A DNA stretch of 64,000 nt from Candidatus Fervidibacter sinensis (GCA_032161045.1 JAVHTH010000010.1), one strand, 5' to 3'; numbered from the stretch's first letter, positions 6,856 to 63,720 are shown. Numbers and translations are program-made. The notes: generated from the sequence alone by a model not told the origin.

Positions 6856-8319
6856 ATGCAAACGACGGAAGAAAAAACTTCTGCGCCTGAAGCGGAAAAG
6901 GCAAAGGTGTTGACAATAGAAAGTTTGGCGGAAAGTTTCGCCACCGCCGAGTTGAGGGGCGGGTTGTGTCGGTGGTTCGCTCAACTGAGATGGGGAGCGA
7001 TTGTTGGTGCCGCATTGACAATCATCGTGGCTGCATCTTTGGGAGTTCAGTTGCCGTTACTTTGGCTTTTCCTCACCCTCGCATTCATCGCCCTTTACAA
7101 TGTCGTTTTCCTTTACCTGACTGACCCTCGCCGACCTTCCCGTGTTGACCCGCATCGGTGTGCGTTGTTTCAGGCAACTGCGGATTTGGTTGCTTTGACC
7201 ACGCTGCTTCACTTTTCGGGGAGCATAGAGAACCCGTTTGCTTTCTTCTTCATCTTCCACATGATCATCGCCAGCGTGTTGTTGCCAATTCAATGGGCTT
7301 GGGGGTTAGCATCACTCGCTACTGTTCTGTTTGGTGGAACAGTCTTGGCGGAACATCACGGCTTGCTCACCCACTACCACTTGAACCCGTTCCCGATGAT
7401 CTGTAAATCGCCTCTTTTCGTTGTCGGGACATTGGTTGCGTTCGCTACAACGCTGCATGTCACGGTCTTTATGACTTCGGTTATCGCCACTCGGCTCAGA
7501 CGCCGGGAGCGAGAGGTCAAGGAGTTGGCTCAAACTTTGCGACAATATTCGGAGGAGTTGGAAGAAGCCAATGAACGATTGGAGCAATTGGAGCGGATGA
7601 AATCCACTCACCTGCGCAAGATGAGCCACGAACTGAGGGCGCCTTTAAATGCCGCCAAGAGCCTGATCAACATTCTGAAGGCTGGCTACAAGGGAGAACT
7701 ACCTCCGCCCGCATTGGAGACTTTGGACCGAATTTCAACTCGCTTGGACGAGATGCTCGCCATTGTCAATAGCATTTTAACGCTCTCTCGGGTGCGAGAT
7801 GCCCGTCTAACTCAGGAGCGGGAATGGGTTGATTTCGGTCGCATTGTGAGTGAAGTTGTAGAAGGTTTGCGAGCCAACGCTTTGGCGAAAAACATTGACC
7901 TTCAAGTTGATTTGCTCAGGGGCATCCCACACATTTGGGGAGTCCCTGAAGCCCTGAGGGAGATCGCCTCAAACTTGATTGACAACGCCATCCGATACAC
8001 ACCGAAAGGCGGCAGAGTTGAGGTTCTACTCTACCCGCATGAAGGCGACATCATCTTTCAAGTCAGCGATACCGGCATTGGTATCCCGCCAGAGGATTTG
8101 CCTCATATCTTTGAGGAGTTTTACCGAAGCAGGAACGCAAAAGAGTTCGTCCACGAAGGGACAGGGTTGGGATTGTCAATTGTCAAGTCCGCCGTTGAAG
8201 CCCACAACGGCGAAATTGAGGTCTTCAGCGAACTCGGCAAAGGAACGACTTTCACTGTAACGCTGCCCACCCGAACCAAAGGGAAAGAAGTAGCAAGTGA
8301 AACCAGCGATTTAGAGTGA
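6856..8319 (+). CDS. Membrane sensor histidine kinase
   Basis: Multi-helix hydrophobic N-half, HisKA H-box (MSHELRAPLN), and N, G1 (DTGIGI) and G2 (GTGLGLSI) boxes. No adjacent response regulator. Confidence 0.85.
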   Translation: MQTTEEKTSAPEAEKAKVLTIESLAESFATAELRGGLCRWFAQLRWGAIVGAALTIIVAASLGVQLPLLWLFLTLAFIALYNVVFLYLTDPRRPSRVDPHRCALFQATADLVALTTLLHFSGSIENPFAFFFIFHMIIASVLLPIQWAWGLASLATVLFGGTVLAEHHGLLTHYHLNPFPMICKSPLFVVGTLVAFATTLHVTVFMTSVIATRLRRREREVKELAQTLRQYSEELEEANERLEQLERMKSTHLRKMSHELRAPLNAAKSLINILKAGYKGELPPPALETLDRISTRLDEMLAIVNSILTLSRVRDARLTQEREWVDFGRIVSEVVEGLRANALAKNIDLQVDLLRGIPHIWGVPEALREIASNLIDNAIRYTPKGGRVEVLLYPHEGDIIFQVSDTGIGIPPEDLPHIFEEFYRSRNAKEFVHEGTGLGLSIVKSAVEAHNGEIEVFSELGKGTTFTVTLPTRTKGKEVASETSDLE

Positions 8320-8435: not shown

Positions 8436-10364
8436 ATGGCAAAAGTCAAGGTCACGCTGCCCGACGGGAGCGTGAGGGAATACGACTCGCAAGTAACGCC
8501 GTTGCAAGTTCTCAGAGATTGGAAACCCGAAAGCGAAGATGAATTTTTGCTCGCGGAAGTTAATGGGCAAATTTGGGACTTATTCCGCCCTTTACCCGAA
8601 GGCGAATTGAGTTTGAAGTTCTTGACCTTCAATGACCCACCCGCTCGCGACGCTTACCGCCACACTGCTTCGCACATCCTCGCCCATGCCGTTAAGGAAC
8701 TTTTCCCTGAAGCAAAACTTGCCATCGGTCCGGCAATTGAGGATGGCTACTACTACGACTTTGATGTTCCCCGTCCATTTACGCCCGAAGATTTAGAACG
8801 CATTGAGCAGAAGATGAAAGAAATCGTCGCCGCTGACTATCCGCTGGAACGATTGGAGTTGACAAAGGAAGAGGCGCGAAAGTTACTGGAGGAAATGGGC
8901 GAAACTTACAAACTGGAACTGCTTGACGAAATCCCTGACGAACGGGTCAGTTTCTACCGCCAAAACGGTTTCATTGACCTTTGTCGTGGTCCGCATGTCC
9001 CGAGCACTGGTCGCATTAAGGCTTTTAAATTGCTGAGCGCTTCCGGCGCTTATTGGCGCGGTGATGAACGCAACCCTATGCTACAGCGGATTTACGGGAC
9101 TTGCTTCCCGACAGAGGAGCAATTGCAAGAGTTCCTAACTCGCCTTGAAGAAGCACAGAAGCGAGACCACAGGAAGTTGGGGCGCGAATTGAATTTGTTC
9201 ATCATTGACGAAACTATCGGTTCAGGTTTGGTGCTTTGGTTACCGAACGGCGCTTTGGTTCGCAAGCAAATTGAGGACTTCTGGCGCGAGCAGCATCTTA
9301 AGCGAGGTTACCAAATTGTTTTCACGCCCCACATCGCACGCGATGAACTTTGGCAACGCAGCGGTCACCTTGACCTTTACAGTGAGTTCATGTTCCCGAC
9401 AATGCAAATTGAAGCGCACAAGTATCTGCTCAAGCCGATGAACTGCCCGTTCCACATCACGATTTACAAGACGCAAACACGAAGTTACCGGGATTTGCCC
9501 ATCCGCTACTGCGAACTTGGGACAGTTTATCGTTACGAACGGTCTGGAGTTTTGCACGGGCTTTTGAGGGTTCGCGGTTTCACTCAGGACGATGCCCACA
9601 TTTTTTGCACTCCCGATCAAGTGAAGGAGGAAGTGAAAAACGCAGTTCAGTTTGCTTTGTTCATACTTCGGACTTTTGGTTTCACCGAGTTTGAGGTTAA
9701 AATTGCCACTCGCCCTGAGGGCAAATTTGCGGGCACTTTAGAAGGATGGGAACGAGCCGAACGAGAATTGCAAGAGGTCGCGCAAGAGTTGGGCTTGGAC
9801 TATGAACTTGACATCGGCGGCGGTGCTTTTTACGGTCCGAAGATTGACATCTTCTTGCGCGATTGCTTGGGGCGGCGTTGGCAATGCTCCACCATCCAGT
9901 TAGACTTCAACTTGCCAGAAAGGCTTGATGTCAACTACATTGGTCCTGATAACAAGGAACACAGGGTTGTCATGGTGCACCGCGCACTGCTTGGTTCAAT
10001 GGAACGGTTCGTGGCGGTCTTGACGGAACATTATGCAGGGGCGTTCCCTGTTTGGCTCTCACCGATCCAAGTTGCGGTGCTTCCGATTTCCGAACGACAT
10101 TTGCCATACGCAATGCAAGTTGCCGAACGACTGCAAGCGGAAGGAGCGAGGGTGGAAGTTTTGGCTAAAAGCGAACCGATTTCAGGGCGAATATTTGATG
10201 CGGAAGCGAGAAAAATTCCTTACATGTTGGTCGTCGGCGACCGAGAGGCACAAGCGGGGGCAGTGGCGGTTCGCGAACGCGGGCGAAAAGATCACGGCAC
10301 AATGTCGCTTGACAAATTTGTTGAATGGCTCAAGCCGCAACTTAAACCACCAATTGTGGGGTGA
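8436..10364 (+). CDS. thrS: Threonine--tRNA ligase
   Basis: TGS N-domain, class II motifs (YRYERSGVLHGLLRVRGFTQDDAHIF), anticodon-binding C-domain, 642 aa. Confidence 0.95.
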   Translation: MAKVKVTLPDGSVREYDSQVTPLQVLRDWKPESEDEFLLAEVNGQIWDLFRPLPEGELSLKFLTFNDPPARDAYRHTASHILAHAVKELFPEAKLAIGPAIEDGYYYDFDVPRPFTPEDLERIEQKMKEIVAADYPLERLELTKEEARKLLEEMGETYKLELLDEIPDERVSFYRQNGFIDLCRGPHVPSTGRIKAFKLLSASGAYWRGDERNPMLQRIYGTCFPTEEQLQEFLTRLEEAQKRDHRKLGRELNLFIIDETIGSGLVLWLPNGALVRKQIEDFWREQHLKRGYQIVFTPHIARDELWQRSGHLDLYSEFMFPTMQIEAHKYLLKPMNCPFHITIYKTQTRSYRDLPIRYCELGTVYRYERSGVLHGLLRVRGFTQDDAHIFCTPDQVKEEVKNAVQFALFILRTFGFTEFEVKIATRPEGKFAGTLEGWERAERELQEVAQELGLDYELDIGGGAFYGPKIDIFLRDCLGRRWQCSTIQLDFNLPERLDVNYIGPDNKEHRVVMVHRALLGSMERFVAVLTEHYAGAFPVWLSPIQVAVLPISERHLPYAMQVAERLQAEGARVEVLAKSEPISGRIFDAEARKIPYMLVVGDREAQAGAVAVRERGRKDHGTMSLDKFVEWLKPQLKPPIVG

Positions 10365-15714: not shown

Positions 15715-17784
15715 CTACCTCAGCCTTGCAATCGTCGTTCCTTGAATTTTCCTTCCTTCATCATCTTGTGCAATTACTCGGACTAAGTATGCACTCGTTG
15801 GCAACACCTCTCCATTGTTCCCCAGACCTTGCCACACAATTTGTTGTTGACCTGCCAAGCGATTCCTACCGCTCTCTAACACCGCTACCTTCCTTCCAGT
15901 CAAGGTCAAAACCTCAACTTGAGTTTGTGCTGGTTTAGTCAATGCAAACTGGATTGATATGCCCCTTCCCCGCATCGGTATCGCCTTCAATCCAACAATG
16001 CGCAAAGGTCGCTCATTGCCCAACTCAGCGATAACCTTGAACCGCCTCTCCGTCTCACCTTCATTCGGCACAAACCGATATTCTGTCTGAGTCCTCATGT
16101 ATCGCCTCGTCCCTGTCGCAAGGTCAACCAAAATCAAACTCACATCCTTTGGAACATGTCCAACTCCATTCCATATCATCGTAACTTCTTTTTGCCTCGT
16201 CCCTCGTCCCCCCTCCCTCGTCCCGAACTTCACAACCACATCCCAAACATGCTGCCTTGCTGCGTTGTTCCTAACATCAACTGCCAAAGGTGCACCATTG
16301 TTGAGCACCAAAACTTGCACATTGCTGCTTCCTTCAGGCGGTTCAGGTGGCAAACCGATTGTAAGTCCTCTTGAACCTTGTGAAACTCCCCAAATTGCCT
16401 CTCCACTCTCGTCACCAACTTTCGCCACCAACTTCACTGTCCATCCATTGCCTTTCACTACTCGTCCCGCGTCCCTCGTCCCCCGTCCCTTGCTTTGGCT
16501 TGGTGGTGGCAGTATAAGTTCGCAGTCGGTATGAGCATAGACCCAATAGCCCTTCCAAGGTTCAAGTTGCCCTTTAACTCCAGGAATGACGCTTGTATCG
16601 TAGACCAGAACATACTTTCCCTTAAACGGGTCATTTTCATCCTGCTCCCATCCCCAAGCGTAATCTTCAATCCAGCCTGCCTGCTGGGCTTGTGCCACAC
16701 TTAACGACTGTTCGCCCTTCCTCACACGAATTCCTTGGCTAATGTCCCAATTAATTGGTTGGGTGAAGGGATTGCTAATAAAATTCCATCCCTTTTGCAA
16801 GGGGATAATGACTTCTTCAGCAAGAGGTTCGCCTACAAGGCTGAAAGGAATCTCTTTGTCCGCCTTAAACCAGTAGCCCTTTCCTGGCTCAATAGCAGCT
16901 CCAACATCTCGGTAACCTTGAATTGAGGGATCCCAAACTTTCATTAGTAGACCATCTAAACCGAGTTCTTGTCGCGTTAAGGATTCCGTTCTTAGGCTTA
17001 AGCCAAATGTTCCGATGCCTTGAGCAAGGCAAGGGACAAACGGTGAGACAGTGAAACTACGCTCTTCACTGCCTTCACTCCATTGTTTCCCATCGTGGGC
17101 ATAAACTTGCCACTTATACTCACCAGCAGATAAGGCGTAGTTCCCTGAAATCCTGAAGTTCGCTATTTCTCCGCTACTGTAACTGAGTTTACTCCAACCA
17201 CTAGTGTCCTTAGTTTGATCAAATTCGTGTATGATTTGTCCATTTCGCTTGATGACTAATTTGTATTTAATAGGATCGCCATCATTGTCAGTTGCTACCA
17301 TTCGGAAAGTTGGAGTGCCGGAGGTCATTGAATCAGGGGCAGGGGAAACTAGTTGTGGAAGCAACGGCGCTTGGTTAACGGTTATCATTCTTGCATTACT
17401 TGCTTCGCTCCATTCTTTCCCGTCAAAGGCGTAAGCAAGCCACAAGTAAGTCCCCGCTGTTAACCTCTGATTTGATGGAACAACAAATGTCGCTTCTTCT
17501 CCACTTGCATACTCACTCTTATCCCAACCTGTCCCCTCTTGTGTTTGGTCAAATACAGCAACAATTTGGTCGCCTTGCTTGACCACTATCTTGAACTTCA
17601 AGTTGTCACTATCAGGATCTGTTGACTTGATTTTGAATGAAAGGGTAGGAGTGACAAAGGAATTGTTTTCTGGAGCAACAAGTTCAGGGGCATTTGGAAC
17701 TTGGTTGACAACGAAACTCCTTTCACTACTGAATTCACTCTCTTGCCCCCTTTCATCTACCGCCTTCGCTCGCCATGTGTCCAT
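15715..17784 (-). CDS. C-terminal portion of the giant S8 protease (separated by a frameshift)
   Basis: Continues the NQxPNxPEL...GxYxWxxxAxD repeat domain that begins in the upstream ORF. C-terminal FlgD-Ig/T9SS-sorting-like beta domain. Carries two GGGACGN modules. Confidence 0.7.
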   Translation of the reverse strand: MDTWRAKAVDERGQESEFSSERSFVVNQVPNAPELVAPENNSFVTPTLSFKIKSTDPDSDNLKFKIVVKQGDQIVAVFDQTQEGTGWDKSEYASGEEATFVVPSNQRLTAGTYLWLAYAFDGKEWSEASNARMITVNQAPLLPQLVSPAPDSMTSGTPTFRMVATDNDGDPIKYKLVIKRNGQIIHEFDQTKDTSGWSKLSYSSGEIANFRISGNYALSAGEYKWQVYAHDGKQWSEGSEERSFTVSPFVPCLAQGIGTFGLSLRTESLTRQELGLDGLLMKVWDPSIQGYRDVGAAIEPGKGYWFKADKEIPFSLVGEPLAEEVIIPLQKGWNFISNPFTQPINWDISQGIRVRKGEQSLSVAQAQQAGWIEDYAWGWEQDENDPFKGKYVLVYDTSVIPGVKGQLEPWKGYWVYAHTDCELILPPPSQSKGRGTRDAGRVVKGNGWTVKLVAKVGDESGEAIWGVSQGSRGLTIGLPPEPPEGSSNVQVLVLNNGAPLAVDVRNNAARQHVWDVVVKFGTREGGRGTRQKEVTMIWNGVGHVPKDVSLILVDLATGTRRYMRTQTEYRFVPNEGETERRFKVIAELGNERPLRIVGLKAIPMRGRGISIQFALTKPAQTQVEVLTLTGRKVAVLESGRNRLAGQQQIVWQGLGNNGEVLPTSAYLVRVIAQDDEGRKIQGTTIARLR
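16197..16225 (-). repeat. (GGGACGN)4 module in frame in the protease gene (sense strand)
   Basis: Reverse complement reads GGGACGA GGGAGGG GGGACGA GGGACGA. Translated GTREGGRGTR. Confidence 0.85.
16461..16489 (-). repeat. (GGGACGN)4 module in frame in the protease gene (sense strand)
   Basis: Reverse complement reads GGGACGG GGGACGA GGGACGC GGGACGA. Translated GRGTRDAGR. Confidence 0.9.
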
Positions 17785-20700
17785 TGCCCGCTTTCAAGAG
17801 GTTTATCAACTGTTACTGAAACATCCGTCCCACTATCAACAAAATCGGTTTCATAGGTCGCAGTCATATTCCCTTTCTTGACTTCAATTACCGCCTTTAC
17901 CTTATCGCCATCTGGATCACTTACTTTCACTGTAAAAGTAACTTGTGGTCTCACTATTGCTTCATCCGCAGGGGTCAAAAGTTCAGGGACATTTGGAACT
18001 TGCGTTACGGTTAAAGTGATAGGGGTAACTACCTGTGGCTTTTCTACATCATTGGAGTTGAACACGAGATTTGCTTTGTGGTTTCCAAGTCCGAGAGAAG
18101 TGGCATCTAAAGTTAATGCCAGATCCACTCCTTCGCCACCCAAAAGACTCCCTGCCAAAGGTGAGTGATCCAGCCAAGGAACACCCCTGATCACAGGAGC
18201 ATACCAGATGTCAGGGACTGCATCAAATGCACCAGCGGAAGAGTCCCAAAATTCACATGCGACATGAAAGTCAACCGGGTTACCGATATCAGAAAGTTTC
18301 ACTCCAACTTCAACGGCACCATTAACTGATTTGAACCAAACAAAGTCAGCCGCATAATCAAAGTTTCCTGTTGACGGATTATAACGATAAACTCCTATCG
18401 TTCCCATACCTCCAAAGAGAATATAGTCCACTCCCATACCGCTTCTCCATCCTACGCCTGTGGCAGCGTTGCGGTCAGTGTCAAGGAAGATGTCTAAGTA
18501 GGTATCATCTGGGTTGAATTCTCCTCCCTCTAATTCAGCACGGAAATAAAGGTAAGTTCCGTCGGATTGGAAGAAAACTTTGCGGATATTGCGGGCATTT
18601 CCATTGAATTCATCTGGGTCAACCATAATCCATCTCCAAGTTCCTGTTGGAGGTTGTCCGTTTTGTAGGGTAGTGATAGGTTTGCCATTTTTGAGCGGAA
18701 TAAGTTCAATGGATTGGTCGGTTTCGGAATTAGGAACAAATTGGAATGGTGCAATTTTTGTTTGTTTTATGGGACGGCTAACTGGTTGGGATGGTGGAGG
18801 AGTCTTAACAGCATTTTGGAAGAGTTGTGCAAGGCGCTTGCTATGAGGTGTGGGCTTGGACATCAACCTTTGGATAACCTGCTGCCATTCCTGCTGCTTT
18901 TTTGAGTCTGTAATTCCTTGTGATGGTCTGAGTGTCATGTTTTGGAAGGACAATGCTTTTTGCTCTCTTTTTTGTTTTGCACGCAAATACTCCTGATACA
19001 ATTTGGAGTTTTCAGGAACAACCATAACACGCCGATTTACAGGTTGGTGGCGAAGCGTTGATAGAGCCGATGTCGCCCCACGAGCGATGAATGTGAGAGA
19101 CCTACCACCAACATTGGAGACATTCATCGCAGTTGTTACCTTAGTGCCTTGGAGTAAAGTTTGCTCCACAAAAATGGGTGTTACAGAGATTTGAGGTCCA
19201 GGCTGTAAGGTCAAAACAATTTTGTAAGTGCAATCAGGACCACCTAAACTTCCCCAATCGCTTGGCATCACACGCAGGTAATATCTTCCAGTTCTTGGCA
19301 ATTGAATGTCAATGTAAGGATCCCATCCCCACCAACCTTGCGACCAAGCAAGTTGTTGTCCCTGCTCGTCATAGAGTGCCAATATAGCAATCAGAGGCGA
19401 ACCCTGTCTTTGAGCAATAACTTCCGCTGTTGCGAAATAACCAGCAGGACTGTCAAAAACAAAGTAATCCGAATCAAATTGAGGGTCAATAACTCCGTCA
19501 ACAGTTTGTCCACTGGCGATAGTTGTTGCGTTTTGAGGCCAATCGCTGTGATCATCCGGTGCATCCTTGACTATCGTTAGCATGTAATTCCCAGTAACAC
19601 CCCAAACATCTTCCACTTTCACATAGAAATCCCCGTCGTGAGGCAAGGGAAAGCGAACGATGCGAGGGTTGTTGCTCCACCATAGCCAATCTGGGAAGTT
19701 ATCATTGTATGCGAGCACTATCTGTCCATCACTGTCGTAGAGGGTCAAAGCAGGATTCTGCCACCATGGATCAAAGGCTTCTACCGAAATTGCCACATAA
19801 TCGCCCAATTGCCCACTGAACTTATAAAAGTCCAAATCATCTGGCGGATTGATCTCACCTAAAATGGTGTCACCATAAGCAATTTGAGTGGCTTGAGCGG
19901 GAGTGTCATTAGGTTCTTGTTCAGCAAGAGTTTTACGGAGGGAAAGGGTGTAAGTAAAATCTGGTCCGCCCACATTAGAACCACCATACGGTATTACCCG
20001 CAGGAAATAACGACCCGACTGGGTAATCTGGTAACTAATGTAGGAATCAAGCCCATAATAGTCATCGTTGAACGCAATGATATTGCCCTGCTCATCGTAA
20101 AGTGCAAGCATAGAGTCTAAAGGCGAGCCTTGCCTTTGGGCGAATACTTCAGCAATTATGAAATCGCCTTGTTCGGCGTAAAACGCAAAGTAATCTGTAT
20201 CGGGTGGTGGATTTATCGTGCCAGAAATGTTTTGTCCGTATGCAATGGGTGTGGCGGTTTGTGTCCAATCCCCATGGTCATCAGGGGAATCCTTGACGAG
20301 GGTGATTGTGTAAAAATGATTTTCGCTTCCACTACCTAAGTAATCTTCCACTTTAATGTAAAACGTCCCATCATGGGGAAGAGGAAAGCGAAGAACAGGA
20401 GACTCCCACCACTCATACCACCAGTAGTCCCAATCCGCATACCAGTCTACCACCAGCCTTGTTTGTCCATCGCTGTTATATAAAGTAACCACCGGATCCA
20501 TTGGGTAACCCAGTGACAAAGCACGAACCCTTATGGTCACTAAATCATCTTTTTGTCCATCAAACTTATAAAAGTCCACATCGCCTGGAACGAGTATCGT
20601 TCCCTGTTTTGATTCTCCATAAGTGATAGGTGTTGCTGTTGAAGGGTCATCATTAGGTTCTGTCGGATCTGCAAGAACTCGCACAGTTGCTGGGTCGCTT

Positions 20701-22718
20701 TCGCCTTCATCGTAAACAACCGTTACTCGGTAAAAGAGAACTAACTGGTTTGGAGGTAAATTGGAGTCAACATAAGATGTTTGATCGGAAGGAAGGCTTG
20801 CAATTAAGTCGTAAGGACCTTGGATTTGTGTTGCCCTGTAAACTCTGTAACCTTGCAAATCTAAAGGTCTAATAAGGGGCTGTCTGGAAGCAAGTCTTCG
20901 GAATCGGTTGTTGTTAAAAACGCTTCCCCACTGAAGCGTCACAGTGTTGTCATCAGAGTTATAAGTTGCAATTAGGTTGGGAACTGAGCGCAACTTTAAG
21001 GTGATGGTGTAATGTCTCATCTTGTTGTCAAATGCTTTGCTGGTCACTTTCAAGTAAAAATCACCCGAATTAGGCAGGACGAATTTAGGAATGAATGGGT
21101 CTTTGCTCCCGTTGTAATCGTCACTTTCTGCTAACACTGTTGAACCGTCGCTATCTAAAATCTGCAAAACAGCATCAATTCCGGAGCCCAATGCTTCGGC
21201 TTGAATTTTTACAGTGATGACCGTATTCTGAGTTGCGCTGAACTTGAATAAGTCTATATCCTCGTCAGGTTCAATCTTACCGAACAAAGTTTCTCCAAAA
21301 GCAATAAAAGTCGCCTGAACAGGAGTATCGTTGGGTTCGTTTTGGTCAGGAGCAAGAGGCAAAATGGATAGAAAAGCATCAATTCGCCCCCAGCCGTAGT
21401 CGTTATCAGGTCCTGGAGCACCCAAATCCACAGCAGAGTTTTTCAAAAGGTTCTTGATATTTTCCACAGTAAGTTCGGTGCCTTGTGCCCTTGCGAAAGA
21501 TTGAATAAGCGCTACTGTCCCCACAACATGTGGACACGCCATTGAAGTGCCACTCCAGTACTCGTAACCTCCCCCAGGCACAGATGAAAGCACAAAATCT
21601 CCTGGGGCTGAAACATCTGGCTTTATGATTTCACCAATGCCAGTCCAGAAGACGGGACCGCGGCTTGAAAAGTCTGCAATATTGTCATTGATATCTGTTG
21701 CCCCCACGCCAAACGCCATTGGGTAGTCGCCAGGGGAGTTCGTTGTTTGAGGAGCGGGGCCGTCATTTCCTATGGAAAAGGCAGGGAAAATGTTAGCAGC
21801 GATCCACGCATTGAGAGCATCTCGGAGGGAAGGATCCATGTCTGGAGAGTGGGAGCCAATATATCCCCATGAGTTGTTGACTACATCGGCGCCATCATCG
21901 GTAGAAGGATCACCATCAGGGTCAAGCATCCATTGCATACAAGCAAACATCCCTTCCTCCGTTGCCCCCTCATCTTCGTCAAACAATCGAGCAACAATTA
22001 AAGTTACCCCAGGAGCAACCCCTATATGTATTCCACTTGCGTTTCCACCAGCGATAGTTCCTGAAACATGTGTTCCATGTCCATGCCAATCAGAAGGTAA
22101 TGAACCTGGGTCGTAAGGGTCAAACCATCCATTTACAGGACGGAGTTTACCTGCTAAGTCAGGATGTGTGGGATCAATTCCTGTATCAATGACACCGACA
22201 GTCACATTGGCGCCTCTAACACCAAAAGTATTCCAAACCTCTGGGACGCGAATTTTTTCCAAACCCCATGTAAAAGCCTGTTGAGGTCTTATCCCTCTTT
22301 GACGGCGGATAGGCTGGATAAGTCTGACTGGTCGTACTTTCTCCACCCTTAATACGGACGGATCTCGTTTTAATGCTTCAATAACTTCTGAATCTGCCTT
22401 GACGGAGATGGCATTGACAATCCACAAAGACCTATATTGGTGGACTTTCCCTTCTTGCTGCCATTGCTGCAAGCGAGCAAGTATGGGGCGTTGGGTTCTC
22501 TGCGCTGTTTGCATTAACAACCTTTTGACTTCGGTTCGGTTACCTTTTACAGATAGGAGATTCGCTTTTTCCCGAAGGAACACAAGGTAAACAGTTTCTT
22601 GGGTCTGCGCCACCAACCCTGCCCATACGGCAATCACAGCTAGCAATAACCCAAGCGACAATACAACCACTGACCGCTTCTCTATTTTTCGTTCCCTCCT
22701 TATAAAGAAGCCGTTCAC
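17757..22718 (-). CDS. N-terminal portion of the giant secreted subtilisin-like (S8) protease with multiple PPC-type domains
   Basis: Catalytic D (VGVIDTGID), H (HGHGTHVSG) and S (SGTSMACPHV). I9-like propeptide. At least five EPND/DDH-type pre-peptidase C-terminal repeats. Start uncertain: GTG at 22718 gives a signal-anchor, while the ORF-track start is 22895. Confidence 0.8.
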   Translation of the reverse strand: MNGFFIRRERKIEKRSVVVLSLGLLLAVIAVWAGLVAQTQETVYLVFLREKANLLSVKGNRTEVKRLLMQTAQRTQRPILARLQQWQQEGKVHQYRSLWIVNAISVKADSEVIEALKRDPSVLRVEKVRPVRLIQPIRRQRGIRPQQAFTWGLEKIRVPEVWNTFGVRGANVTVGVIDTGIDPTHPDLAGKLRPVNGWFDPYDPGSLPSDWHGHGTHVSGTIAGGNASGIHIGVAPGVTLIVARLFDEDEGATEEGMFACMQWMLDPDGDPSTDDGADVVNNSWGYIGSHSPDMDPSLRDALNAWIAANIFPAFSIGNDGPAPQTTNSPGDYPMAFGVGATDINDNIADFSSRGPVFWTGIGEIIKPDVSAPGDFVLSSVPGGGYEYWSGTSMACPHVVGTVALIQSFARAQGTELTVENIKNLLKNSAVDLGAPGPDNDYGWGRIDAFLSILPLAPDQNEPNDTPVQATFIAFGETLFGKIEPDEDIDLFKFSATQNTVITVKIQAEALGSGIDAVLQILDSDGSTVLAESDDYNGSKDPFIPKFVLPNSGDFYLKVTSKAFDNKMRHYTITLKLRSVPNLIATYNSDDNTVTLQWGSVFNNNRFRRLASRQPLIRPLDLQGYRVYRATQIQGPYDLIASLPSDQTSYVDSNLPPNQLVLFYRVTVVYDEGESDPATVRVLADPTEPNDDPSTATPITYGESKQGTILVPGDVDFYKFDGQKDDLVTIRVRALSLGYPMDPVVTLYNSDGQTRLVVDWYADWDYWWYEWWESPVLRFPLPHDGTFYIKVEDYLGSGSENHFYTITLVKDSPDDHGDWTQTATPIAYGQNISGTINPPPDTDYFAFYAEQGDFIIAEVFAQRQGSPLDSMLALYDEQGNIIAFNDDYYGLDSYISYQITQSGRYFLRVIPYGGSNVGGPDFTYTLSLRKTLAEQEPNDTPAQATQIAYGDTILGEINPPDDLDFYKFSGQLGDYVAISVEAFDPWWQNPALTLYDSDGQIVLAYNDNFPDWLWWSNNPRIVRFPLPHDGDFYVKVEDVWGVTGNYMLTIVKDAPDDHSDWPQNATTIASGQTVDGVIDPQFDSDYFVFDSPAGYFATAEVIAQRQGSPLIAILALYDEQGQQLAWSQGWWGWDPYIDIQLPRTGRYYLRVMPSDWGSLGGPDCTYKIVLTLQPGPQISVTPIFVEQTLLQGTKVTTAMNVSNVGGRSLTFIARGATSALSTLRHQPVNRRVMVVPENSKLYQEYLRAKQKREQKALSFQNMTLRPSQGITDSKKQQEWQQVIQRLMSKPTPHSKRLAQLFQNAVKTPPPSQPVSRPIKQTKIAPFQFVPNSETDQSIELIPLKNGKPITTLQNGQPPTGTWRWIMVDPDEFNGNARNIRKVFFQSDGTYLYFRAELEGGEFNPDDTYLDIFLDTDRNAATGVGWRSGMGVDYILFGGMGTIGVYRYNPSTGNFDYAADFVWFKSVNGAVEVGVKLSDIGNPVDFHVACEFWDSSAGAFDAVPDIWYAPVIRGVPWLDHSPLAGSLLGGEGVDLALTLDATSLGLGNHKANLVFNSNDVEKPQVVTPITLTVTQVPNVPELLTPADEAIVRPQVTFTVKVSDPDGDKVKAVIEVKKGNMTATYETDFVDSGTDVSVTVDKPLESGQWTHGERRR

Positions 22719-22746
22719 ACGCTCCCATATACATAGCGTCCGAAAT

Positions 22747-22840
22747 GGTGAAAAGTTAAGGTGAAAAGTTAAGAGGTGGGGTGATTGATGTTCTAAACAT
22801 TGCAGAGTGGTCGTGACATAATAAGGGCAAAAAGTTAAGG
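22747..22840. promoter_or_regulatory. Triple direct repeat GGTGAAAAGTTAA in the divergent protease/sigma intergenic region
   Basis: Exact tandem 13-mers at 22747-22759 and 22760-22772, plus GGCAAAAAGTTAAGG at 22826-22840. Confidence 0.35.
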
Positions 22841-22920
22841 CGTATTTTGACCGCGAAGGGGAGATTTGAATATTGCGGTCACAAGCAAAGAGCACTTAAA
22901 AATACGGGTAATGACAAAGT

Positions 22921-23589
22921 TTGCTGAAATTTTTAGAGGCGGTGAGGAGAGTGCAAAAGAGTAACAGGAAAAAGCCTGCTTTTGGGTTGTGCGGGGGTAT
23001 CACTTTGGGTGAATTGAGGGACGAGAGAAAGTTTGACGATTTCGTTCGTCAATCATATGAGCGCTTGCTCGGCTTTGCTTATCAACTACTCGGAAATTGG
23101 GACGATGCTGAAGATGTTGTTCAAACCGTTTTTATGGAATTGTGGGAGTTAGTCACGAAGCGATTGAAAGAGCCAAACGCTAATGCCATCGCCGTCACAT
23201 ACCAATTAGTTAAGCGACGAACTTCTGATTTCCGAATCAAACAACCAAATTCCTTCAACCCAGAATGGTTAGAAGAGCCATTTTCCGAAGAGGCTTTTAG
23301 TGATGGGTTAAGTTGGGAGGAAGAAATGAAGGATGTGGAAGGCATAGTCATAGCCATTGAGAAAAGGAGAGCCATTCGCGAGTGTGGAAATCAACTGCAA
23401 GGAAGGGCACGAGATGTCTTCTCTTTATTTTTGAAGGGTGTTCCCCAAGTGGAAATTGCAAAGAATTTGGGCATCAGCGCAGCGAGGGTGTCGCAGTTGA
23501 TGAAAATTGTCTTCATTCAGTTGAAGCAGAAACTCCAAGAGATGGGCTACGATTGCAACGAAACCGTTAATGTGCCCTTAAAATTTTGA
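22921..23589 (+). CDS. ECF-type RNA polymerase sigma-70 family factor
   Basis: Region 2 (DAEDVVQTVFMELWE) and region 4 HTH (VPQVEIAKNLGISAARVSQL). Start uncertain. Confidence 0.8.
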   Translation: MLKFLEAVRRVQKSNRKKPAFGLCGGITLGELRDERKFDDFVRQSYERLLGFAYQLLGNWDDAEDVVQTVFMELWELVTKRLKEPNANAIAVTYQLVKRRTSDFRIKQPNSFNPEWLEEPFSEEAFSDGLSWEEEMKDVEGIVIAIEKRRAIRECGNQLQGRARDVFSLFLKGVPQVEIAKNLGISAARVSQLMKIVFIQLKQKLQEMGYDCNETVNVPLKF

Positions 23590-23664
23590 CTTTTCTGACG
23601 CTTAATTATTGGAGGTTGGAACGAAAGGTGGGAAATTCACTGCAAAGTTTGAAAGGTGAAAGCC

Positions 23665-24990
23665 ATGCGATGTGAAGATGTCCGTAAACGGATGTTGGAT
23701 TATGTGATGGGCAAACTAACAGAGGCGGAAGTGACGGCGATAGATAAGCATCTTGACCGATGCGAAGATTGCACGAAAGTAGTTGACAATTACCTTAACG
23801 AACTTGGGCTTTTCAACCTTGAACCAGAGAAAAACGAACTGTTTCGTTTGATGCGTATACCTATGCCGTCACAGGAGCGAGTGAAAGCAGGTATAGAAGC
23901 AGTCCTTCAGGCTATTCATGGACCGAAGGCAATCGCTGAACACGAAGTTGCTCCAACTGTCAAGGAACAAAAGTCCAAGACTGCATCATGGGCAGAACAA
24001 TTTGGGGCTTTGGTCAGGCAATTTGCAACTTATTGGGTTTACGGCTTAGCAACTGTTGCAGTTGCAGGTTTGATCATCTTCGCGTGGAACGAACATGCTC
24101 AGCGGAAAGCATTTGAGCATCAAATTGCTTCCCTTCAAATGCAAGTGAATTTGTTGAGGCGACAAAATGAAGCCGTGAAACGAGAGAACGAAACATTGCA
24201 ACGCAAATTGGAACAAGCATTGTTAGAGCGTCAGCGAACTCAAAGGGTGTTTGAGGAAAGGCAAAAGCAATTGGAAAAGAGGTTAGCCCAGCAAGTTTTT
24301 GTTTTGGTGCGGGATAGAGCGGGAGCGGTTACAATCAACGCTGATGGCACAGTGCGATTGGAAGGGAGACAAATTTTGCCTTTGCCTTTCGCCCAACAAG
24401 TGAAAGAGTTAATCACCACAGGTGCAGTGAAGCCGTCAAAACCGGCACTTCTTGCAATGGCGACTTTGAACAGCGGTTTGATGCTAAATACGCTGCGAAG
24501 CGCAAAGGTTGAAACATCTCAAAAGCCCATCCCCATTAGCCCTGTCCTTACCGCTGTTCGTTCTGTCTGTCCAAAACTGCAATGGAAACCCGTTGAGGGG
24601 GCAAAGGGATACAAGGTGATGATTGTTGACAAGAATGACAAACTCCTTTGGCAAACAAAAGTTGAGGCAGAAACGAAGGTGATTGTGCCTTCAGGTGTCT
24701 TACGCAGGGGGCAAGTTTACTTCTGGCAAGTAGAAGCCTTTTTAAATGAGCAATCCAACTTGTCGCCTGTTGTCGGTTTTTGGGTGCTCAGTGAGGAAGA
24801 GTTGAAGGAAGTGACAAAAGCAGAACGAAAATTTCAAGGTTCGGCATTGGTTCTCGCCAGCCTTTACGCTCATCATGGGCTCTACGAAGAGGCGCTCGCT
24901 CAAATTGAACGACTTTCGGAAATGAACCCTACAAGTCCCTTCGTGCAAGGGATTTTGAATAACTTGGAGCGACAATTGGGCAGGGAGTGA
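23665..24990 (+). CDS. Anti-sigma factor (zf-HC2) with one TM helix, a coiled coil and an extracytoplasmic domain
   Basis: N-terminal MRCEDV...HLDRCEDC zinc-finger motif, hydrophobic segment YWVYGLATVAVAGLIIFAW, heptad-rich region, C-terminal Ig-like and TPR-like parts. Confidence 0.75.
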   Translation: MRCEDVRKRMLDYVMGKLTEAEVTAIDKHLDRCEDCTKVVDNYLNELGLFNLEPEKNELFRLMRIPMPSQERVKAGIEAVLQAIHGPKAIAEHEVAPTVKEQKSKTASWAEQFGALVRQFATYWVYGLATVAVAGLIIFAWNEHAQRKAFEHQIASLQMQVNLLRRQNEAVKRENETLQRKLEQALLERQRTQRVFEERQKQLEKRLAQQVFVLVRDRAGAVTINADGTVRLEGRQILPLPFAQQVKELITTGAVKPSKPALLAMATLNSGLMLNTLRSAKVETSQKPIPISPVLTAVRSVCPKLQWKPVEGAKGYKVMIVDKNDKLLWQTKVEAETKVIVPSGVLRRGQVYFWQVEAFLNEQSNLSPVVGFWVLSEEELKEVTKAERKFQGSALVLASLYAHHGLYEEALAQIERLSEMNPTSPFVQGILNNLERQLGRE

Positions 24991-25103
24991 CGAAAGCGCC
25001 TTTTATTGCAAATAGTTTTGCCTTACCAATTTCCGTCGTAACGAAAATTTTTCTTTAGGTACAAATTTTGCCAGTTTACGCTGTGAAATGGGAGGGTGAG
25101 AAC

Positions 25104-26909
25104 ATGAAAGGTCGCAGCCAATGCAAAGCGGTTTGGGTCTTTGTTTTATGCTGCTTTGCCTTCTGTCTCGCTTCGCCCTCAACCCCTGAAAGCCCCCGAA
25201 CTGGCGAAGAAGAAGTGTTGAAGTCGCTTGTTGAACGCTTTTTCACTGCTTACGAAAAAGAAGACTTAGAGGGCTTAATGAGCCTTTGGAGCGAAAAATC
25301 CCCAGATTACGCCGAGCGCAAAAAGGTTATGAAGGAACTTTTTGACTTGCGTGACTATACTTTCGCTAACTTGATCATCAAGCAAATTCAGTTTGAAGGT
25401 GATAAAGCCAGGTTGAGAGTTTGTATCGCTTTGACCGAGATTGAGCCAAAAACGAGGATGCAAAGCACGCGCAATTTAGACCGAATTTTCGTTTGCGTTA
25501 AGGAAGAAGGTATCTGGAAAATTTGGCGCTATTACCCAACTTCCGAAGAACTTGTCCATGCTTTGTTGCGAGTAGAGACTGATGAAGAGCGGGAAAAGTT
25601 GCTGGCAAAAGAAAGCGAGTTAGTGAATTTTGAGTTGGTTCGCGTCCTTTTGATTTGGGGTGACAAAGAACTGGAACAAGAAAACTTTCAACACGCCCTT
25701 GCAATTTATCAGTTGGCGAACAAGATTGCACAGCGTATTGGCGATGAGGAAGGTCTCATCCTTTCTCTCAACAGGGAGGGCGATACTTTGGCTTTGATGG
25801 GACAGATTAAGGAAGCGGCAGAGAAATACGAGGCTAACATCGTCACGCTTAAGGGGTTTATAAAAAGTCATCAGGAAGGAGGTTCAAACCAGCAGGTACA
25901 TGATTTGTCTGTGCTTTTGGCAAATCTGCTTCACAGACTTGGAATTTTCTATAAAACACGCTATGGCGATCCTGAAAGGACATTAGCCAAGTTTCAGGAA
26001 ATGTTAGCCATTGGGAAGCAGATAGGCGATCGTTGGATAGAGGCTGAAGGGCACAATTGTGTTGGTGGGGAGTTGATTGGTTTCGGCAGGATTGCTCAAG
26101 GTATACAGGAGATGGAAGAAGCCATTAGAATTTACGAGGATTTGCTCCGACAGAACCCTAACCCCAGAATTCGCGAATGCTACCTTGTTGCCTTAAATCA
26201 TCTCGCTTCCACTTACAGTTCCATTCACCTTTTCCCACAAGCGATAGAGCGCTATGAAAAGAGCCTTAAGATTTCCCGAGAAGTTAGTTACAAAGTTGGT
26301 GAAATGGGCGCTTTGTGGGGCATTGGGATGGTTTACGCTGGTCAGGGGGACTTTAAAAAGGCAATTGAACATTTTGAGCAAAGCCTGAAAATGGCACGAG
26401 AAGAAAAGCACTTTGCTTGGATAGTGACCAATCTGGGTTCTCTCGCTGATACTTATCGGGAACTTAGAGACTACGATAAGGCACTTGCATATGCACAAGA
26501 GCAGTTGGAATTTGCACGGGAAGTCCGTTCACCGCTGTGGGAAATTGGTTCGTTGTCGTTAATCATTTCCATCCTTGTCCGTAAGGGCGATACTGCTAAA
26601 GCGAGAATTTACGCTGAAGAGGCTCGGAAAAAGTTGGAGTATTTGGGATTGTCGGAGGAAATGCTCGGTGCTGCAATTGGGGACATATACCGAGCGGAGG
26701 GGAAATGGGAACAAGCCATTGACGCTTACCTCAGATACCTTACTCATCTTGAGCAGCGTTTCCCATTTGAAACCGACCCGCAAACCAAATTGTTACACCT
26801 TGAGAGAGCGTGGTCGGAAGTTTACGGCAACCTTATATCCTGCTTTTTGCGCTTCGTCGTTACGAGGAGGCATTGCAATTTTTGGAGAGAGCGAAAGCAA
26901 GGATTTTGA
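25104..26909 (+). CDS. TPR-repeat N-terminal portion of a TPR-CHAT protein (frameshifted)
   Basis: Signal peptide, NTF2/SnoaL-like segment, then many TPR-like helices. The reading frame breaks at a T5 run at 26844-26848. Confidence 0.7.
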   Translation: MKGRSQCKAVWVFVLCCFAFCLASPSTPESPRTGEEEVLKSLVERFFTAYEKEDLEGLMSLWSEKSPDYAERKKVMKELFDLRDYTFANLIIKQIQFEGDKARLRVCIALTEIEPKTRMQSTRNLDRIFVCVKEEGIWKIWRYYPTSEELVHALLRVETDEEREKLLAKESELVNFELVRVLLIWGDKELEQENFQHALAIYQLANKIAQRIGDEEGLILSLNREGDTLALMGQIKEAAEKYEANIVTLKGFIKSHQEGGSNQQVHDLSVLLANLLHRLGIFYKTRYGDPERTLAKFQEMLAIGKQIGDRWIEAEGHNCVGGELIGFGRIAQGIQEMEEAIRIYEDLLRQNPNPRIRECYLVALNHLASTYSSIHLFPQAIERYEKSLKISREVSYKVGEMGALWGIGMVYAGQGDFKKAIEHFEQSLKMAREEKHFAWIVTNLGSLADTYRELRDYDKALAYAQEQLEFAREVRSPLWEIGSLSLIISILVRKGDTAKARIYAEEARKKLEYLGLSEEMLGAAIGDIYRAEGKWEQAIDAYLRYLTHLEQRFPFETDPQTKLLHLERAWSEVYGNLISCFLRFVVTRRHCNFWRERKQGF

Positions 26910-28267
26910 CGGAAATTTTGCGAAAGGGAAAGGTGGACATCAGTAAAAACATGACTGAGGGGGAAAGGCAAAGAGAGCGAGAACTAAACGCTCGCATCGT
27001 CCAAGCCAATGCTGAGTTGAGGTCACTTCTTTCCCAAAGACAAACCGACCAAGCAAAATTGGATGAAGTTTGTAAGCGATTAAATTCAGCCCGTCAAGAG
27101 TATGACGCTTTTCGGCGCAGCCTTTACTTGAAGTATCCTCAATTGGCTTTTCAGCGTGGTGAAGTTCAACCTTTGACTTTACAGCAAATTTTTCACTGGC
27201 TTCAAAGTGTGAAGGCAAAAGATGTGCTTGTGTTGGAATATCTCGTGTTGGATGAGCGGACATGGCTGTTCGTGCTACACGGGTCGGGAAATTTTCAGGT
27301 TTACCCAATTGACATCTCCCGCGAAGAGTTAGAGCGGAGAATTGAGGCTTTGAAATCAGCCATTCACCAAAAGGAGGAGGGAAAGGTCGGTGCACTTACC
27401 GCTTTTGAAAGGGCAATAAGGCAATTGGACATCCTAATTAAGCCCGTAATGCAACAAATTAATAGGGCAAAACAAGTTTGCATCGTCCCTGATGACATTT
27501 TGTGGGAAGTTCCTTTTGCTGCTCTCAAGACGCCTAAAGGTCGCTATCTTGTTGAGGTTTGTTCTGTCTTTTACGCCCCATCCATCACTTCCCTGAAAGC
27601 GATGCAAGAGATGAAGGAAATGAAGAAGCCATCAAAAACCCTGTTGGCGATGGCGCCTTTCGCCTATCCTGAGGGGAGCAAGCAAGCCATCCGAACCATC
27701 CCGCTGGTAGGCACTTTTGGTCCTTTGCCGGCCAGTCTTAAGGAAGTTTCAACTTTGGCAAAACTTTACAGTGTAAAACCTTACTTGCGTGAAGAAGCGA
27801 GGGAAAGTCAAGTGAAAACGAAAGGGCATCAAGTTGGCATCCTTCACTTTGCAACCCATGCGTTCTTTGAACCGTCGCAAGGTCTGTATTCGGGCATAGT
27901 TTTGGCAGAGGAGAAAGGTGAAGACGGTTTTTTGGAAGCAAGGGAAATTGTTGATTTGAACTTGCATGCGGATTTGGTTGTCCTATCTGCTTGCGAGACA
28001 GCAAAAGGTAAAATCCATCGCGGTGAAGGACTGATTGGTTTGACTTGGGCTTTCTTTGTTGCTGGATGCGCTTCAACAATCGTGAGCCAATGGAAAGTTA
28101 TGGATGAAAGCACAGCAGAACTGATGACGACTTTTTATAGTCACTTGAAGGCTGGAGCGAGTAAGGCAGAAGCCCTGCGTCAAGCACAATTGCATCTACT
28201 GCGCAATCGCAAATTTGCTCATCCCTTCTTCTGGTCCCCTTTCATCCTCATCGGCAATTGGCATTAA
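26810..28267 (+). CDS. CHAT (caspase-like) protease-domain portion of the TPR-CHAT protein
   Basis: ILHFATHA (His) and LVVLSACETAKG (Cys) dyad motifs, and a C-terminal HPFFWSPFILIG motif typical of CHAT domains. Confidence 0.8.
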   Translation: MVGSLRQPYILLFALRRYEEALQFLERAKARILTEILRKGKVDISKNMTEGERQRERELNARIVQANAELRSLLSQRQTDQAKLDEVCKRLNSARQEYDAFRRSLYLKYPQLAFQRGEVQPLTLQQIFHWLQSVKAKDVLVLEYLVLDERTWLFVLHGSGNFQVYPIDISREELERRIEALKSAIHQKEEGKVGALTAFERAIRQLDILIKPVMQQINRAKQVCIVPDDILWEVPFAALKTPKGRYLVEVCSVFYAPSITSLKAMQEMKEMKKPSKTLLAMAPFAYPEGSKQAIRTIPLVGTFGPLPASLKEVSTLAKLYSVKPYLREEARESQVKTKGHQVGILHFATHAFFEPSQGLYSGIVLAEEKGEDGFLEAREIVDLNLHADLVVLSACETAKGKIHRGEGLIGLTWAFFVAGCASTIVSQWKVMDESTAELMTTFYSHLKAGASKAEALRQAQLHLLRNRKFAHPFFWSPFILIGNWH

Positions 28268-39724: not shown

Positions 39725-39910
39725 GTAGGGTCGGGCTGCTGTCTGACCGAAAAAATTGGCTGAATGTAGGGCGCGGTTTTACACCGCGCCGAAAAATTTG
39801 TCGGCAGGGTATAAAACCCTGCCCTACAAGGGAAATTTGGCTCAATGTAGGGCGCGGTTTCACACCGCGCCGAAAAAATTTTGTCGGCAGGGTATAAAAT
39901 CCTGCCCTAC
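39725..39910 (+). repeat. Array of variant REPIN units (family A2), 81-nt period
   Basis: Full units at 39766-39827 and 39847-39910: GTAG+GGCGCGGT-loop-ACCGCGCC, linker GAAAAATTTGTC, GGCAGGGT-ATAAA-ACCCTGCC+CTAC. Partial unit at 39725-39765. Confidence 0.8.
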
Positions 39911-39967
39911 AGGTGACGGTTAAGGCGGAGGTTCCTGCAAGCGATTTTGACCCTACTGCGCTAACCT

Positions 39968-63451: not shown

Positions 63452-63720
63452 GTTCGTAGTGAGGCACGGAACGAAGTGGAGTGCCGTTATACAGTTTAGA
63501 AGTTACGCAGTTGGATGTAGGGGCGGCTGCTAAGCCGCCCGTAGGGACGGTTTTAAAACCTTACAAAGGATGTTTTCGGGCAGACTATCGTCTGCCCCTA
63601 CAAAAATGACACCAACTGCGTAAGTCCTAACAGTTGATACGCCACTTCGCTAACGCTTCGTGGCTTACTACGAACAAAAGGAAGTTTGTAGTAAGGCACG
63701 AAACGAAGTGAAGTGCCGTT
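63452..63720 (+). repeat. Composite nested REP structure
   Basis: Outer imperfect inverted repeat 63452-63675 (GTTCGTAGT...ACTACGAAC, TTACGCAGTTGG/CCAACTGCGTAA). It encloses a family-A REPIN (63517-63601) that itself contains GTAGGGACGGTTTTAAAACCTTAC. The 33-nt GTAG-headed left arm (63456-63488) is repeated directly at 63688-63720 with 3 transitions. Confidence 0.75.

Follow-up and report, generated by a model that had tools for sequence, protein, structure and literature searches.

A stretch of 64,000 nucleotides from Candidatus Fervidibacter sinensis (GCA_032161045.1, JAVHTH010000010.1), hereafter the window, carries a genuine syntenic module of three genes, encoding a sigma factor of the extracytoplasmic function (ECF) type, a zinc anti-sigma factor of class I and a CHAT protease with a tetratricopeptide-repeat (TPR) solenoid. 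The module is most likely a split, two-polypeptide counterpart of the DdvA-DdvS system of Myxococcus xanthus, and we infer, with a probability of roughly 45%, that TPR-CHAT acts in trans as the site-1 protease of the anti-sigma factor and would thereby signal from the envelope to the cytoplasm. A preliminary description made from the sequence alone had placed the three co-directional genes, as we find them, on the plus strand at 22.9-28.3 kb; its observation is partly confirmed, a frameshift in the protease gene having been missed. Its interpretation is also partly supported: the synteny, the catalytic dyad, the location of the protease and the site-1 idea stand, but kinship with the type III-E CRISPR (clustered regularly interspaced short palindromic repeats) system Craspase and a regulon including a neighbouring S8 protease fall. 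The features of the trio are as follows.

22951-23589, plus strand: ECF (group IV) sigma factor, 212 amino acids (Pfam, TIGR02937).
23665-24990, plus strand: single-pass anti-sigma factor, 441 amino acids (zf-HC2, AlphaFold2 model).
23671 (Cys) and 23749-23772 (HxxxCxxC), plus strand: zinc site in the cytoplasmic anti-sigma domain.
24031-24087, plus strand: transmembrane helix of the anti-sigma factor (hydrophobic segment).
To about 24288, plus strand: periplasmic coiled coil of the anti-sigma factor, followed by a small alpha/beta domain.
About 24493-24543, plus strand: conserved flexible linker of the anti-sigma factor.
24550-24786, plus strand: FN3-like sandwich, first part of the DUF928-like ectodomain of the anti-sigma factor.
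24793-24975, plus strand: TPR-like helices, second part of the DUF928-like ectodomain.
25104-26909, plus strand: 5' part of the TPR-CHAT gene, with signal peptide, NTF2/SnoaL-like domain and TPR solenoid.
25104-25175, plus strand: signal peptide of TPR-CHAT.
About 25200-25538, plus strand: NTF2/SnoaL-like domain of TPR-CHAT.
26849-26850, plus strand: private 1-nt deletion (GG to G, frame shift -1) that splits the TPR-CHAT gene.
26850-28267, plus strand: 3' part of the TPR-CHAT gene, with a helical linker and the CHAT caspase-like domain.
27857-27859 and 27992-27994, plus strand: codons of the CHAT catalytic His and Cys, read directly from the sequence.

The identity of the first protein is as originally proposed. 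Both Sigma70_r2 (33.9 bits) and Sigma70_r4 (26.5 bits) are present according to Pfam, and a score of 64.6 bits with the TIGR02937 sigma70-ECF model, above its cut-off of 42.9, places it among the ECF (group IV) sigma factors. The longest open reading frame (ORF) of this gene, 22921-23589, opens with a TTG at 22921 and would encode 222 amino acids; the start is however likely to be the GTG at 22951, which sits behind a Shine-Dalgarno sequence (GGTGAGGAGA), and the gene is called as 212 amino acids in the public annotation of two related loci, L006 and L007 (loci and database proteins are designated by L and P numbers). The start given for the second gene, 23656, likewise moves: the longest ORF is 23656-24990 (444 amino acids), but all homologs use the ATG at 23665.

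The second protein is a single-pass zf-HC2 protein, as first described. PF13490 zf-HC2 scores 36.3 bits (cut-off 22.2), the zinc motif C-x25-H-x3-C-x2-C corresponds to C6 and H32-x3-C36-x2-C39 in the numbering of the 444-residue ORF, and the sole hydrophobic segment, residues 126-144 in the same numbering, is followed by about 300 residues. By these sequence features it is a class I (zinc-binding, zf-HC2) transmembrane anti-sigma factor, predicted to bind the sigma factor. An AlphaFold2 model obtained with 14 homologs (mean predicted local distance difference test score, pLDDT, 74) consists of a three-helix bundle (6-49) and a long helix (126-211) whose first 19 residues are hydrophobic, then, in the outer part, an alpha/beta domain (214-278), a low-confidence linker (283-296), a beta-sandwich (299-377) and four helices (380-440). 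In a Foldseek search, the sandwich and helices resembled the MtxA C-terminal domain (4z29, E = 7e-5) as well as numerous FN3 domains. The DUF928 family (PF06051) scores 20.7 bits on the window protein, under its gathering cut-off of 26, with 28.0 bits in the close family members P0098 and L023 and 21-24 bits in others. Within the anti-sigma factor, this ectodomain is conserved best (mean column identity 66%, versus 30% for the whole protein); it is conserved above the sigma-binding domain, and the conservation spans all of it, which suggests that it has a protein partner and is not a passive plug. A stretch at residues 280-303, LRSA(R/K)...KPxPxSPVLTAxRS, is conserved yet disordered.

The third protein starts with a Sec-type signal peptide (MKGRSQCKAVWVFVLCCFAFCLA|SP) that is present in every ortholog examined, and the protease is thus predicted to lie outside the cytoplasm, in line with the preliminary description. 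A conserved N-terminal domain (LVERFF..Y..KDLDGLMSLWSEKSPDYA) follows in all TPR-CHAT orthologs. In the AlphaFold2 model of the restored protein (mean pLDDT 83), residues 33-145 form three helices and a curved four-stranded sheet with NTF2/SnoaL-like topology, and the ortholog of L021 gives a faint SnoaL_3 match; in one sister clade, a PDZ domain stands in place of this domain. About 20 TPR-like helical hairpins, with TPR families matched in Pfam, then precede a domain that belongs to the CHAT family (PF12770, 251.5 bits, cut-off 24) and is split off by the frameshift here. A protein of about 1,050 amino acids with signal peptide, TPR and CHAT domains had been described, and these parts hold; it is not, however, a single ORF in the window, the 1-nt deletion splitting the gene. 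The motifs around the catalytic residues, ILHFATH(A/G) and LSAC(E/D/Q)T (HFATHA and LSACET in the window), are invariant in 31 aligned full-length homologs, and the Cys/His dyad is intact in all complete orthologs of related loci save those of a single clade, L045 and L046. There (L045:3406-6675 and L046:1937-5206) the catalytic His, the second His of the motif, is replaced by Tyr (HLATYGI), and the Cys and the gene trio are kept; from their sequences, these two proteins are possible pseudo-proteases. A Foldseek search of the Protein Data Bank (PDB) with the TPR-CHAT model returned DdvA first (8rw5, E = 1.4e-16; 8rot, E = 7.9e-16), then human separase and the TPR-CHAT protein of Craspase, Csx29 (7y84_C, 8eey_B), at about 1e-14 to 1e-13. 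At the sequence level no link to Csx29, DdvA or separase was found, phmmer against the PDB giving TPR proteins only.

The trio, or at least the anti-sigma/CHAT pair, is kept in about 25 independent loci of several phyla, with one clear exception. The order sigma, DUF928-type anti-sigma, TPR-CHAT recurs in related and distant loci, namely in Armatimonadota- and Poribacteria-labelled metagenome-assembled genomes (MAGs), in Acidobacteriota, Rhodothermia and Gemmatimonadales and in many soil metagenome contigs; the anti-sigma homologs are rare, forming 14 clusters among 5.8 billion proteins. Order and strand are the same in L001 (forest soil), L003 and L008 (paralogous loci of one Poribacteria-labelled MAG), a contig of the Joint Genome Institute (JGI), L009, L019, L020, L010 (an acidobacterial MAG), L012 (Rhodothermia), L013 (Gemmatimonadales, truncated) and L021. 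In L011, L016 and L018, TPR-CHAT is encoded on the strand opposite to the anti-sigma gene; the last two of these loci were reached from TPR-CHAT homologs only 30% identical. A scan of JGI metagenomes with a profile of the ectodomain yielded about a dozen further loci. TPR-CHAT was encoded directly downstream in every strong hit with at least 2 kb of downstream sequence (L022, L023, L025, L027, L029, L036, L038, L039, L041 and L044-L046), L005/L024 being the exception, and partial hits (L034, L047, L048) were likewise accompanied by TPR-CHAT. An ECF sigma gene is recognisable ahead of the anti-sigma/CHAT pair in most loci, and in the acidobacterial-type loci the sigma factor carries an insertion of about 150 amino acids. 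FN3-only matches (L014, L015, L050-L056) were set aside as outside the family. Across the loci compared, no conserved neighbour (regulon) was found besides the trio itself; each locus has different flanking genes, of housekeeping or glycosidase type.

These gene arrangements bear on an alternative in which TPR-CHAT is the output of the module, a co-transcribed periplasmic effector protease acting on other substrates (in envelope remodelling, secreted-protein processing or cell death), and in which the ectodomain senses an unrelated signal. The gene junctions of the trio in the orthologs are short or overlapping, and such an operon-like arrangement would suit an effector, all the more as ECF sigma factors commonly autoregulate their own operon. 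Large secreted proteins also adjoin the trio in a few loci: the S8 protease in the window, a FlgD_ig protein in L008 and a beta-helix/Por_Secre_tail protein in L012. We nevertheless consider this alternative unlikely. CHAT tracks the DUF928-type ectodomain even where no sigma gene is detectable (L027, L029) and in convergent or divergent orientations that make co-transcription impossible (L011, L016, L018), which argues for a partnership at the protein level, and no other neighbour is conserved.

The closest known system is DdvA-DdvS, in which an ECF sigma factor is paired with a transmembrane anti-sigma factor that contains a periplasmic TPR-CHAT region (PMC11506125; PDB 8ROT, 8RW5). Common to both systems are the ECF sigma factor, the zinc anti-sigma domain (CHCC/HxxxCxxC) at the N-terminus and the single transmembrane helix; DdvA is the top Foldseek match of TPR-CHAT, which is predicted from its signal peptide to be periplasmic too; and the proposed logic is the same, CHAT acting as site-1 protease ahead of intramembrane proteolysis. 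In contrast to DdvA, TPR-CHAT here stands alone in all orthologous loci, as a secreted protein that has a signal peptide and an NTF2-like (or PDZ) N-terminus of its own, and the anti-sigma ectodomain consists of a coiled coil and a DUF928-like FN3/helical domain. The fusion that defines DdvA, of zinc anti-sigma domain, transmembrane helix and periplasmic TPR-CHAT in one polypeptide, is absent, and the anti-sigma factor of the module is therefore not of the DdvA type. Identity to DdvA is about 14-15% in the structural alignment, with no phmmer match, and no defence island lies beside the module. The taxonomic ranges differ as well: DdvA-DdvS belongs to the Myxococcota, and the module to Acidobacteriota, Armatimonadota- and Poribacteria-labelled MAGs, Gemmatimonadales and Rhodothermia. 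According to the authors of the DdvA study, fused DdvA-like proteins occur only in Myxococcota and one Comamonas species (PMC11506125).

By analogy to DdvA, the ECF sigma factor of the module would be held at the membrane by the zinc-binding single-pass anti-sigma factor, and the secreted periplasmic TPR-CHAT protein would dock on the conserved DUF928-like ectodomain. A periplasmic cue, detected by the sensor domain (NTF2-like here, PDZ in the sister clade), would activate TPR-CHAT, which would then serve in trans as site-1 protease and cleave the anti-sigma factor outside the membrane; the disordered stretch at residues 280-303 is a candidate cut site. Intramembrane and cytoplasmic proteolysis would then free the sigma factor. 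The site-1 role, already suggested in the preliminary description, is plausible and has a published precedent: the same role was proposed, not proven, for the CHAT domain of DdvA acting on its own polypeptide (PMC11506125). In that system, TPR-CHAT blocks RseP and its removal permits RseP cleavage, and the active site is turned towards the partner protomer's juxtamembrane linker (PMC11506125). For the module, gene content, domain folds, topology signals, synteny, dyad conservation and the frameshift are observed; physical interaction and cleavage are inferred, as are cue and regulon.

In the window, TPR-CHAT is encoded in two overlapping ORFs, 25068-26909 (frame 0, start ATG 25104) and 26810-28267 (frame 2), the first ending at a premature stop at 26907-26909. 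After 26849 the window is one G short, reading TTTTTGCG (TTTTTG-CG) where L006, L009 and L022 read TTTTTGGCG, and putting the G back gives a clean protein of 1054 amino acids. The public contig L006 (GCA_032161665.1) is 99.4% identical to the window; L009 (an Armatimonadota-labelled MAG) and L022 (a JGI metagenome contig), both 94.5-98% identical, encode an uninterrupted 1054-residue protein, and a further intact one of this length, 93% identical, is present in the protein database (P0015). L006 has its own lesion, a 7-bp insertion (TTCGCGT, L006:10193-10199, at window position 26617) that frameshifts its TPR-CHAT gene; all three coding indels between the window and L006 disrupt a reading frame. 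Programmed -1 frameshifting at 26849 was considered and rejected: no good slippery heptamer is present at the site, which makes it unlikely, and three relatives have one more G.

Long-term pseudogene decay is not supported either. The ratio of non-synonymous to synonymous divergence (dN/dS) is 0.17-0.20 for the restored TPR-CHAT, no higher than for the sigma factor (0.40) or the anti-sigma factor (0.23), so that any inactivation would be recent or else an assembly artefact; these ratios show that purifying selection acted on the gene until recently. In its assembled form the module has no secreted CHAT domain, and the gene is either a recent pseudogene or the product of an assembly error. No independent support for the deletion was found, the truncated 601-residue product having no record and the Logan contig L007 ending at 25156. 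Between close strains, the synonymous divergence (dS) of TPR-CHAT is 3-10 times that of the adjacent sigma and anti-sigma genes (25104-28267 versus 22951-24990): 0.036 versus 0-0.003 to L006, and 0.158 versus 0.05-0.07 to L009. This pattern suggests that the protease gene alone has undergone recombination or allele exchange. Together with the break of the Logan contig just inside the gene, it also points to strain heterogeneity, a plausible source of consensus error.

Several observations weigh against a cleavage-based mechanism of this kind. In the structural model, a cut at the linker (283-296) would leave about 150 periplasmic residues, the coiled coil and the small domain, which is long for direct entry into an RseP-type site-2 protease. 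The genes can also be found apart: L005 (on the same contig as L024) has the sigma and anti-sigma genes without an adjacent CHAT gene, L017 a CHAT protein without sigma or anti-sigma factor, and L027 and L029 are DUF928-CHAT pairs with no sigma gene detected. As the protease gene is frameshifted in the window and differently so in L006, either the protease is dispensable in some strains or the assemblies are faulty. Finally, the Tyr in place of the catalytic His in L045 and L046, where the trio is kept, fits a role in binding over one in cutting.

A binding role defines a second alternative, in which TPR-CHAT is a non-catalytic co-receptor or modulator: its TPR solenoid would bind the ectodomain and either shield it from another site-1 protease or relay a conformational signal, binding and release controlling the sigma factor much as RseB acts on RseA or securin on separase. 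The conservation of the whole ectodomain, and not of one site, is what such a role would predict; the clade without the catalytic His retains the gene order; and the CHAT domain of DdvA was found in an inactive state, with an incomplete active site and RseP sterically blocked (PMC11506125). However, in all other orthologs the His/Cys dyad is invariant together with the motifs around it, even at large distances, which argues for retained catalysis, and dN/dS is low across the CHAT gene. A purely non-catalytic role is thus doubtful in our view.

The trans site-1 reading shares its logic with Craspase, to which the preliminary description had likened the trio. In the Craspase arm (Cas7-11, Csx29, Csx30 and CASP-sigma; PMC10028731), as in the module, the gene for a TPR-CHAT protease is linked to those for an ECF-type sigma factor and an inhibitor whose proteolysis is proposed to set the sigma factor free, and Csx29 is among the top fold matches. 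The resemblance is one of analogy only: the NCBIfam model of Csx29 (NF041237) gives 14.9 bits on TPR-CHAT against a cut-off of 300, which leaves the protein outside that family, PADLOC reports no defence protein for the module or the genes around it, and no Csx30-like partner is encoded. The absence of Cas7-11 and of a CRISPR array, stated from the outset, is confirmed: no CRISPR-like array was found in the 64-kb window, whose large ORFs are housekeeping genes or glycosidases, and no cas genes were seen in the related loci compared. Unlike the Craspase arm, the module has no Cas7-11, CRISPR array, Csx30 or Csx31, its inhibitor is a classical zf-HC2 membrane anti-sigma factor, and its protease is secreted and not cytoplasmic, RNA guidance being impossible. 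Because the tests for Csx29, Cas7-11 and array, Csx30 and cytoplasmic location all fail, the module lies outside the type III-E Craspase system and would be a functional analogue only of Craspase-Csx30-sigma.

These two comparisons raise a third alternative, an anti-phage sensor resembling DdvA-DdvS or the Craspase arm, in which TPR-CHAT would detect a periplasmic phage protein and switch on defence genes. DdvA, the best structural match, does control an island with CRISPR and CBASS (cyclic-oligonucleotide-based anti-phage signalling system) genes (PMC11506125). The excess synonymous divergence of the CHAT gene over its partners and the different CHAT frameshifts in two close strains are also reminiscent of fast-evolving defence genes. 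Yet the negative PADLOC result, the lack of a CRISPR array or cas gene, the housekeeping or glycosidase flanks that differ by locus and a dN/dS without sign of diversifying selection all argue against it, and we regard a defence function as quite improbable.

Cleavage of RseA by DegS is the textbook model of site-1 cleavage, and the DegS/RseA/RseP/sigma-E pathway of Escherichia coli resembles the module in combining a periplasmic sensor protease, a single-pass anti-sigma factor and an ECF sigma factor. The likeness extends to the PDZ domain of the sister clade, PDZ being the sensor domain of DegS, the classical site-1 protease (PMC10028731). The protease of the module is however a caspase-like Cys protease and not an HtrA Ser protease; it is soluble, TPR-scaffolded and encoded in the same operon, and the anti-sigma ectodomain has a different fold. 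A genetic link between an ECF sigma factor and CHAT is also on record for the ECF54 group of Actinobacteria, whose context comprises carboxypeptidase, subtilase and CHAT genes and which is described as having no anti-sigma factor (PMC8999054, citing Huang et al. 2015). A subtilase gene adjoins the trio in the window too; the description of ECF54 does not fit the module, which has a conserved zf-HC2 anti-sigma factor, has the subtilase gene as a non-conserved neighbour and occurs in other phyla. This is the only other ECF-CHAT link that we found in the searchable literature; the main text of Casas-Pastor et al. on ECF groups does not mention CHAT. No description of the split DUF928-type module was found in that literature either, although the ECF Hub group tables may already catalogue it.

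Upstream of the sigma gene lie a conserved non-coding block and a promoter candidate, and beyond them, in divergent orientation, the S8 protease gene:

22715-22776, plus strand: conserved non-coding block of about 45 nt (GCTCCCATATACATAGCGTCCGAAATGGTGAAAAGTTAAG), its last 13 nt tandemly duplicated.
22794-22822, plus strand: sigma-70-type promoter candidate with extended -10 (TAAACA-17 nt-tgaCATAAT), from a promoter scan, consensus match only.
15715-22895, minus strand: giant secreted S8 protease, with I9 propeptide, S8 domain, three PPC domains and a FlgD_ig tail.

Counterparts of the block lie upstream of the sigma genes in L009, L019 and L001, and counterparts of its 3' part in L021 and L022 as well. 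The core of the block, AAAGTTAAG, has a third copy at 22831; as AAA[AG]TTA[AG]G it occurs three times at 22752-22840, within 90 bp, and nowhere else in the window, where about two matches would be expected by chance on both strands. The block is a candidate operator or promoter element, or both. The promoter candidate lies between the copies, with GTGACATAAT kept in L009 and L019 and the related GTGATACAAT in L021. A classical ECF promoter (GGAAC-N16/17-CGT) was also sought in the block; the spacing found, GTTCC-N12-GCGT, does not fit, and no -35/-10 elements were therefore assigned there. The leader of the sigma gene has no Rfam match. In L001 the block is present twice in direct orientation (7965-8010 and 9195-9240, 1.2 kb apart), flanking a minus-strand gene for a secreted protein of 364 amino acids with GPDGNLYV-type repeats, which we read as NHL-like; this gene could be a second target of a regulator that reads the block.

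The S8 protease had been proposed as a candidate regulon member, and we rejected it as a conserved partner or regulon member on synteny and motif search. The gene is absent upstream of the trio in L009 and L022 (96-98% identical) and in all distant loci, the homology of L009 and L022 to the window beginning at 22760, and the conserved upstream block has no further copy in the 64 kb. The reading frame of the S8 gene is also broken in the window, into ORFs of 1712 and 689 amino acids (junction 17757-17784) by a TG insertion at 17776-17777 (TGTG versus TG in L006); it is continuous in L006, and the Logan contig L007 independently reproduces the insertion.

Some relatives depart from the three-gene layout. 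In L023 (L023:5051-12338, P0098), a single ORF of about 800 amino acids joins the sigma factor to a TPR region and DUF928, beside a CHAT protein of 1610 amino acids. P0013, P0122, P0156 and P0204 are proteins of 740-950 amino acids with a C-terminal DUF928 and an unannotated N-terminal region of several hundred residues, and the ORFs adjoining the CHAT gene in L027 and L029 are of about 748 amino acids. In L017 (4340-9258), the gene of an NTF2-TPR-CHAT homolog, 30% identical, follows immediately downstream of one for a Peptidase_M50 (site-2-protease-like) protein that ends in a TPR tail; this distant locus gives the only hint of a site-1/site-2 pathway. The window also contains repeated elements. 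Tandem arrays of palindromic GC-rich units at 283-545 (64 nt, 4.1 copies) and 39752-39911 (81 nt, 2 copies) have no unique spacers and are REP-like (repetitive extragenic palindromic), not CRISPR. A 134-nt element resembling a miniature inverted-repeat transposable element (MITE), with terminal inverted repeats (GGACTTACGCAGTTG...) and an internal GTAGGGGCGG...CCGCCCCTAC palindrome, is found at 63497-63629 in the window and at 5655-5788 and 52-188 in L009, where one copy has been inserted after the anti-sigma gene and ahead of the TPR-CHAT gene.

For DdvA, the notion that a CHAT domain serves an anti-sigma factor as site-1 protease has so far stayed a proposal, and one that is hard to test, since protease and substrate form one polypeptide for which there is no known trigger. 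The module provides a natural split version in several phyla, in which protease and ectodomain can be separated, mixed and mutated and the cleavage site could be mapped, and it offers interchangeable sensor domains (NTF2-like or PDZ). As the protease gene of the window is interrupted, the intact allele for such experiments should come from L009, L022 or P0015. Tentatively, an evolutionary and functional scenario may be suggested: DUF928-type anti-sigma factors and their cognate secreted sensor-TPR-CHAT proteins may constitute a widespread, undescribed periplasmic pathway in which a caspase-like site-1 protease acting in trans activates ECF sigma factors. The pathway could then be a split ancestor or derivative of DdvA and the extracytoplasmic counterpart of Craspase-Csx30, with DUF928 generally a docking or substrate domain for CHAT. 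If true, this would give the DUF928 fold its first function and would extend caspase-like signalling to the bacterial periplasm.

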